This document shows, one piece after another, positions 61,030-61,312 of a DNA stretch of 64,000 nucleotides. The notes beneath the pieces were generated by a model. That model worked only from the letters and a program-made list of their open reading frames with translations, was not told the origin of the DNA and ran no database searches. The position numbers were made by a program, and so were the translations under genes. Position 1 is the stretch's first letter. Every line of letters begins with the position of its first letter. Source of the DNA: Eledone cirrhosa (taxonomy: Eukaryota); NCBI GenBank assembly GCA_964016885.1, contig OZ024756.1, positions 28,086,001 to 28,150,000 on the forward strand, read 5' to 3'.

Positions 61030-61312
61030 CTAAGAGCACCAATTCTAATTTTCAATTTTAGCTGGACCGGCAACTGCTCTGTATAATCATTTCCTGATTA
61101 TTACTGGAATTCTATAAGAATCCAACATTCATAATTTTCAGCGGGCAAAGGGAGTGCTAAGCTCTGAGGAGTACCAACAGTACGAAACAGAGATCTGTCA
61201 GCTTATCTCCCTTTGTTTGCTGAAAAAAGAAGTAAGTGACATAGTCACTACTCTGAAACAAAAGCGTATGGTCTTCTTTTAATTAAGCATACAGTGTATT
61301 GCAAAATACACG
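61030..61312 (+). mobile_element. Diverged solo relative of the 310-bp hammerhead unit
   Basis: Shares ordered blocks ggaccggcaac.gctct, aatca.ttcctg, attctataag, ggtcttc and catacag around an HHR. Confidence 0.7.
61135..61226 (+). ncRNA. Canonical extended type I hammerhead ribozyme
   Basis: UAAGCU-CUGAGGA-GUACcaacaGUAC-GAAA-CAGagauCUG-UC-AGCUUA, with a GUC site at 61197-61199. A distal 20-bp helix ttttcagcgggcaaagggag/ctccctttgtttgctgaaaa lies beyond an internal loop. Confidence 0.9.

Follow-up and report, generated by a model that had tools for sequence, protein, structure and literature searches.

The window analysed here, a stretch of 64,000 nucleotides from Eledone cirrhosa, carries a complete hammerhead ribozyme (HHR) embedded in a TA-rich microsatellite, which raises the question of what kind of element this ribozyme belongs to and how it came to be inserted there. 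The explanation that we favour, and consider probable, is that the locus is a truncated copy of an HHR-bearing repeat of ~320 bp, likely a non-LTR retrozyme, that is probably transcribed from an internal promoter and owes its place in TA microsatellites, in all likelihood, to a Penelope-like element (PLE) enzyme. The first-pass annotation had bounded the element at 61030..61312; its extent is corrected here to 61033-61325, or ~293 of the ~320 bp of the unit, and its parts and immediate setting are as follows.

60636..61029 (unstranded): TA-rich microsatellite, the insertion target on the 5' side; it resumes at 61326-61489
61033..61325 (plus): likely retrozyme unit of subfamily B1, 5'-truncated, whose 3' end is terminus S1; genomic copies are 91-94% identical and a natural tandem sets the unit length
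61061..61080 (plus): box 1, GCTGGACCGGCAAC(T/C)GCTCT, a likely upstream promoter element kept in subfamilies A-E; its two candidate helices show no both-side changes
61085..61096 (plus): AATCAG-type box, a likely snRNA-type proximal element; T at 61090 in the window copy, G in the family
61109..61118 (plus): TATA-like box, ATTCTATAAG, invariant in 15/15 aligned copies
61135..61226 (plus): long hairpin of a 20-bp distal helix, an internal loop and the type I hammerhead
61159..61204 (plus): hammerhead proper with GUC triplet, predicted to be cut at the 61199/61200 junction
61231..61252 (plus): triloop hairpin AGUGAC-AUA-GUCACU; in the aligned columns, no pair has changed on both sides
61263..61276 (plus): AGCG..GGTCTTC box; the window copy lacks the 7 nt that follow in the family
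61288..61311 (plus): CATACAG and the 3' hairpin GTGTATT-GCAA-AATACAC, likely bound by the partner reverse transcriptase; covariation
61312..61325 (plus): 3' terminus S1, which ends at CATTCA, followed by (TA)n

The earlier description of a complete type I HHR, with a GUC site, stem III, internal loop and 20-bp distal helix, is confirmed both by direct reading and by a motif scan. On direct reading, stem I pairs AAGCU (61159-61163) with AGCUU (61200-61204) and leads into the core CUGAGGA (61164-61170); stem II consists of 4 bp (GUAC-CAACA-GUAC, loop CAACA) and is followed by GAA; and stem III of the window copy is ACAG-AGAU-CUGU, 4 bp with the loop AGAU, which places C17 at 61199. Outside the internal loop (UGCU/AU), the distal helix formed by 61135-61154 and 61207-61226 has 20 bp, including three G-U pairs. 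All features that define the type I form (CUGANGA core, GAA, UH, three helices, stem I open) are present, and the ribozyme is predicted to self-cleave after 61199. Folding of 61135-61225 gives z = -5.4, with none of 200 shuffles as stable, and the minimum-energy fold retains the distal helix and stem II and loses the HHR core fold. The sequence GGACCGGCAAC occurs 13 times in the 64-kb window against 0.06 expected. Rfam returned no hammerhead match at gathering thresholds in the whole window or at E values up to 10 in 60400-61500, an Rfam match being a library score that lies outside the structural definition of the hammerhead.

The window copy itself is truncated and probably inactive. The start of the unit is missing, private lesions are found at 61090 and after 61276, and the copy is a monomer with a single ribozyme, so that it could not release unit-length RNA and falls short of the two HHRs that a recent preprint demands of an 'active' element (bioRxiv 10.64898/2026.07.22.740005). 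Neither an ORF of at least 110 aa nor the RT plus GIY-YIG ORF of an autonomous PLE is found within the unit, and no LTR structure was detected in the flanks of the element.

This element is one copy of a dispersed ~320-bp repeat family in a 3.0-Gb genome rich in TA microsatellites. A genome search returned 2,952 candidates, and among the best 40 scored, full-length copies other than the query are 91-94% identical; a 33-letter family motif has 208 genomic matches, and a pattern of the shared boxes has 15,589, which among the matches listed represent the array family A. The unit length of ~320 bp is given by a natural head-to-tail tandem (L018). At least seven related subfamilies (A, C, D, E and B2-B4 among them) and one distant family, G, are observed; the loci were picked as best matches or first pattern matches, and the samples behind all counts of copies, aligned rows, termini, units and runs are therefore biased. 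Subfamily A, by its sequences the youngest, has a mean identity of 98.6%, as against 93-95% in the other subfamilies. The 3' module of family G aligns with those of A, C and D (0-1/1000 shuffles scoring as high; 53/1000 for B2), and alignment of its 5' module with those of A-E is not significant (41-898/1000). Family G (L255:1228-1500; L282-L311) also shares the two-ended tail, and has a different 5' module and a minimal stem III, AUGCAU. The ~320-bp units are non-coding, below 50% GC and equipped with a type I HHR, and their length falls in the 150-450 bp expected of non-LTR retrozymes; head-to-tail tandems and monomers are both present in the lineage, as arrays in A and as 7 dimers among 132 runs in B-E. 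The HHR is fully intact in only 21 of the 55 B1/B2 copies, which is as expected of decaying offspring. Neighbouring units of different subfamilies were seen at L018:1501-2140, L090, L066 and L167, in exact tandem register in L018, which suggests template switching or insertion into existing copies.

The first-pass annotation had presented the element as a diverged relative of a 310-bp array unit, in which the flanking blocks were conserved and the ribozyme helices shared almost no sequence. For the 5' flank the relationship is clear (score 56, shuffle maximum 28, 0/2000), and the 3' flank of the window copy aligns weakly (45/2000) because 7 nt are missing, the 3' flank of an intact family copy giving 0/2000; the ribozyme hairpins, as had been claimed, do not align significantly (448/2000). 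One proposed block, AATCA.TTCCTG, needs correcting, since conservation of TTCCTG does not extend to subfamilies C and D, which also rules out an ETS reading of TTCCTG.

Selection on RNA structure, likewise proposed at first, is upheld by pair counts over an alignment of 15 natural copies, where both-side changes are observed in 4/5 pairs of stem I, 4/4 of stem II, 1/4 of stem III and 2/8 of the 3' hairpin, as well as in the 3-8 core pair, which is C3-G8 in 9/15 rows and U3-A8 in 6/15. The changes in the 3' hairpin relative to the array hairpin are indeed compensatory by these counts, and position 10.1-11.1 is unpaired in 6/15 rows. A shuffle control gave 0/500, a figure that is not a probability, as the aligned rows are related. 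Within these alignments, covariation of the core shows that catalysis has been under selection in the past. The U3-A8 core variant has been reported in PLE ribozymes (PMC4209133, in the portion compared). Stem III is graded across the lineage, from ACGCGU in A through ACAGCUGU in D and ACAGACUGU in C to 4 bp plus a tetraloop in B, so that long and minimal forms coexist in one lineage; in the part of PMC4209133 that was compared, a short palindromic helix III is described as requiring dimers. Subfamily A has a different hairpin where B1 has the triloop hairpin (61231..61252), and family G has a hairpin of other wording at the position of the 3' hairpin (61288..61311).

The manner of insertion is recorded in the ends of the copies. 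Termini were scored in 102 independent loci out of 110, and two 3' ends are used, S2 lying ~36 nt beyond S1; S1 accounts for 84 of the 151 termini and S2 for 67; 137 of the 151 run into simple repeats, the targets being (TA)n. Outward-facing inverted arms occur in 43 loci, and in 35 of these the two arms have different 3' ends (expected fraction 0.50, p = 1.6e-5), as they do in 10/10 inverted pairs of family G. In both subfamily A arrays of the window, the first of which has the minimal stem III ACGCGU, opposite arms also use different 3' ends:

36092..38981 (minus, then plus): subfamily A insertion, ~8 units minus followed by ~1.5 units plus; the minus arm ends at S1, the plus arm at S2
40630..41930 (minus, then plus): second subfamily A insertion, a short minus arm ending at S1 and four plus units ending at S2

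Inversion, a one-sided tail and a microsatellite target, which mark PLE insertions, are thus all found in the family, and an ORF-bearing PLE locus (L133) has its target, its inversion and a one-sided tail in common with the retrozyme insertions. In the portions of the literature compared, PLEs are described as forming tandem and inverted insertions in microsatellite targets, with a 30-40-bp tail often at one end only (PMC8557442), and the tail has been tied to two internal starts of reverse transcription, both strands being cleaved and extended by a predicted dimer (PMC11167929). The additional cis elements proposed at first stand as conserved sequence; a promoter 5' of the ribozyme is moderately indicated and start signals for reverse transcription 3' of it are well indicated by the insertion ends, and nothing points to ligation signals.

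What served as template can be narrowed from the lengths of the copies. Among 228 matches, 89 reach the unit start and cross the cut site, so that the template usually had an intact junction, as in a circle or an uncleaved multimer; the other 139 are 5'-truncated, with no pile-up at the cut site (2/139 within 1 nt) and none at the predicted transcription start. An uncleaved linear multimer as template, with no circle and with a ribozyme that plays no role in insertion, would fit the lack of a truncation peak at the cut site, and also the long arrays of the minimal-HHR subfamily A, where 15 of 25 runs have at least three units and 9 of 16 insertions are inverted. Unprocessed RNA is moreover the main substrate in vitro, and HHR cleavage is dispensable for insertion in the purified PLE system (both in the part of PMC11167929 compared). 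We nevertheless regard a linear template as unlikely, because insertions of B-E mostly contain one ribozyme (125 single and 7 double runs of 132, overlapping loci included) yet often more than one unit, which is simple to obtain from a circle, because the core covariation speaks for selected catalysis, and because the retrozymes of coral, mussel and axolotl have been shown to form circles (PMC7229834, in part). It was also considered that a minimal HHR causes long arrays; this was rejected, as 72/82 runs are single in the unrelated minimal-HHR family F, and the youth of A confounds the comparison. In the portion of the preprint compared, 8/9 Xenopus retrozyme dimers lacked cleavage in vitro (bioRxiv 10.64898/2026.07.22.740005).

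Transcription is where the 5' boxes come in. When the TATA-like box is set at -30, which predicts a transcription start near 61140-61143, the AATCAG box aligns by eye with the (A)TCAGT of the U1/U2 genes of this genome, and the GCAA of box 1 aligns by eye with the TGCAAAT of U6 promoters relative to TATA. The U1/U2 genes here (L312-L363) have a TATA-like box at -30 besides the TCAGT element at -57; a TATA-like box at -30 is unusual among Pol II snRNA genes. The spacing from TCAG to TATA is 26 or 27 nt in 141/152 units, and the spacer keeps its length while its sequence varies across subfamilies. A TCAG-spacer-TATA pattern, chosen after the data were seen, is found in 106/152 units, 7/9 U1/U2 promoters, 0/3 U6 promoters and 41/2460 background pieces, the nine distinct U1/U2 promoters being those left of 18 non-identical upstream regions once near-duplicates were dropped. 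The distant family G, which keeps the 3' module, instead has an octamer-type motif as in local U6 promoters, and an octamer-plus-TATA pattern occurs in 9/30 loci of family G, 7/10 of family F, 2/3 U6 promoters and 5/2460 background pieces. A three-block promoter weight matrix did not separate the units from shuffles, 16-117 of 150 shuffles scoring as high; the aligned box reached at most 4.0 bits in subfamily A, compared with 9-30 bits for real promoters, and in most other subfamilies the best site lay elsewhere than the aligned box. On balance these patterns incline us towards a promoter of snRNA type in the 5' boxes. That the boxes are instead signals in RNA structure, for ligation or for protein binding, and no promoter, seems rather improbable. 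They can be drawn as short helices, two of them 97-99% paired, and the promoter matrix is not significant, but the first three candidate helices show both-side changes in 0/15 pairs and two of them break in A or D, a fourth having 1/8; a constant spacer length with changing sequence, and the replacement of the 5' module in family G by one with a U6-like octamer-type motif, also argue for a promoter. Reading GTAAGT, which follows the hairpin, and TTTCAG, within the tail, as splice sites is disfavoured, the donor being absent in subfamily A.

As to the partner enzyme, PLEs with a GIY-YIG domain are abundant in the genome (10,596 candidates, of which the best 150 were scored), and several have a cysteine linker of the Neptune type (clade name as in PMC8557442). 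In the 3' regions of Neptune-like PLEs (L123, L124, L126, L130, L133, L141), GGCGC..AAA, CCAAT and TATA-like motifs are seen before the hammerhead, which is degenerate in several families. BLAST and profile searches found no retrozyme boxes in the own 3' region of any of 100 GIY-YIG stretches drawn from the 10,596 candidates; the searches turned up no more than retrozyme insertions that are separate, in L092, L096 and L255, and a short HHR of similar kind, in L128 and L132-134. Since 100 stretches were covered and the insertion marks are the same as those of PLEs, the copies could be solo pseudo-LTRs that stem from an autonomous PLE outside the sample, whose insertions were 5'-truncated. This origin is improbable, however, as the unit is preceded by the 3' end of a previous unit or by an inverted arm, as pure arrays without an ORF occur and reach 9 units, and as PLE-frame queries match only 3/90 retrozyme loci (L010 and L063 among them, with a low-complexity match in L063), other matches coming from non-PLE frames.

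Runs of four to five Ts stop Pol III early. A Pol III SINE-like repeat resembling schistosome Sm-alpha, with which the family shares a short repeat and a likely promoter followed by a canonical type I HHR (PMC6765202, in part), and for which the U6-like GCAA-TATA spacing of the family would speak, is very improbable here, because in A, B, C, D and G such T runs are found after the ribozyme core and before the 3' termini, there is no poly(A) tail and the ends are PLE-like; Sm-alpha itself uses an internal Pol III promoter.

The preferred explanation, a retrozyme inserted by a PLE enzyme, starts from what is observed, namely how the HHR is built, that it covaries, that the family has subfamilies, inserts into (TA)n and forms inverted arms, and that its copies have two 3' ends, and the steps from transcription to insertion are those that we infer. 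Pol II would transcribe tandem source copies, with the TCAG/TATA module as promoter, and the HHR would cut the multimers into single units, acting alone if its stem III has 4 bp and as a dimer if stem III is nothing but a palindrome, after which a host ligase would close the unit RNA into circles. A Neptune-type PLE protein would then nick both strands of (TA)n, and reverse transcription would have one start site for each strand, both internal to the RNA and immediately 3' of the last hairpin, and copy through the cleavage junction. A wider reading, which we offer tentatively and hold to be doubtful, is that the lineage is a natural minimal substrate of the PLE cycle, with a swappable snRNA-type promoter, a ribozyme module that is freely exchanged and tuned from monomer-active to dimer-only, and a 3' hairpin module that stays fixed, where a PLE protein dimer starts reverse transcription of circular RNA at two sites, one per nicked strand. 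If so, the 3' module of ~110 nt would be a portable signal able to send any RNA circle into TA microsatellites.

The class is likely that of the known non-LTR retrozymes, to which the present loci would add mechanistic detail and no new kind of system; the class itself, the link to PLEs, dimeric hammerheads and the tail are already described. In the portions compared of PMC7229834 and of the preprint (bioRxiv 10.64898/2026.07.22.740005), metazoan non-LTR retrozymes are likewise non-coding, low-GC units of ~320 bp with a type I HHR, occurring as monomers to multimers without an LTR in PLE-bearing genomes, and those of axolotl likewise have two HHR forms within one genome; a PLE origin has been proposed in the preprint. 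The present family differs in being described from genome sequence; no pLTR homologue was found in the 100 stretches, and the portions of the two sources compared do not mention inverted arms, targeting of (TA)n or an alternation of two 3' ends. EN+ PLEs of the Neptune type, in the parts of PMC8557442, PMC11167929 and PMC4209133 compared, similarly have tandem or inverted 5'-truncated insertions with a one-sided 30-40-bp tail in microsatellite targets, and an HHR upstream of the 3' end with the U3-A8 core variant, but here the family lacks an ORF, its units are pure repeats and stem III reaches 4 bp plus a tetraloop. For newt satellite 2, also a tandem HHR repeat, an internal Pol II promoter of snRNA type is cited (PMC2220036, in part), whereas in the retrozyme family such a promoter is only suggested, and the two are likened by description, not by sequence. 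A literature search found no paper on these retrozyme families, one supplement that may list them lying outside the search.

In the portion of the preprint compared, the transcription and the insertion of animal retrozymes are both described as an open question (bioRxiv 10.64898/2026.07.22.740005). To this the lineage contributes genomic evidence for PLE enzymes inserting retrozymes, and reduces the cis signals to boxes that can be tested, namely a likely promoter, the 3' hairpin and two start sites. Because stem III varies naturally in length on a single scaffold, the lineage is also useful for comparing cleavage by monomers and dimers.

Other hammerhead repeats were also seen. At 60460-60640 of the window, another hammerhead family, with GAA, a long stem III and a GUC site, has a 5'-truncated insertion in inverted orientation that shares the TA tract with the element, 400 bp upstream of it, and similar pieces flank L004 and occur in L135. 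An inverted pair at 28480-28770 belongs to yet another repeat of hammerhead-like form, which has CUGAGGA, a long stem II and the palindrome AUAUAU as stem III, and which is found in L131 and L135 too. Family F (L135:8200-9001; L281) is an unrelated minimal-hammerhead repeat of ~470-530 bp with 17,853 motif matches, and its octamer-plus-TATA stretch matches a U6 promoter over 11 bases. The window further contains LINE frames with endonuclease, reverse transcriptase and PHD finger at 43577-46558 and 30226-31353 (minus), a 763-aa open frame with a C2H2 zinc-finger array at 23985-26276 (minus), and an 18-bp tandem repeat of ~99 copies at 58425-60206, with 540-aa open frames on both strands. A tRNA-like sequence at 29347-29417 (38.6 bits) is probably the head of a SINE.
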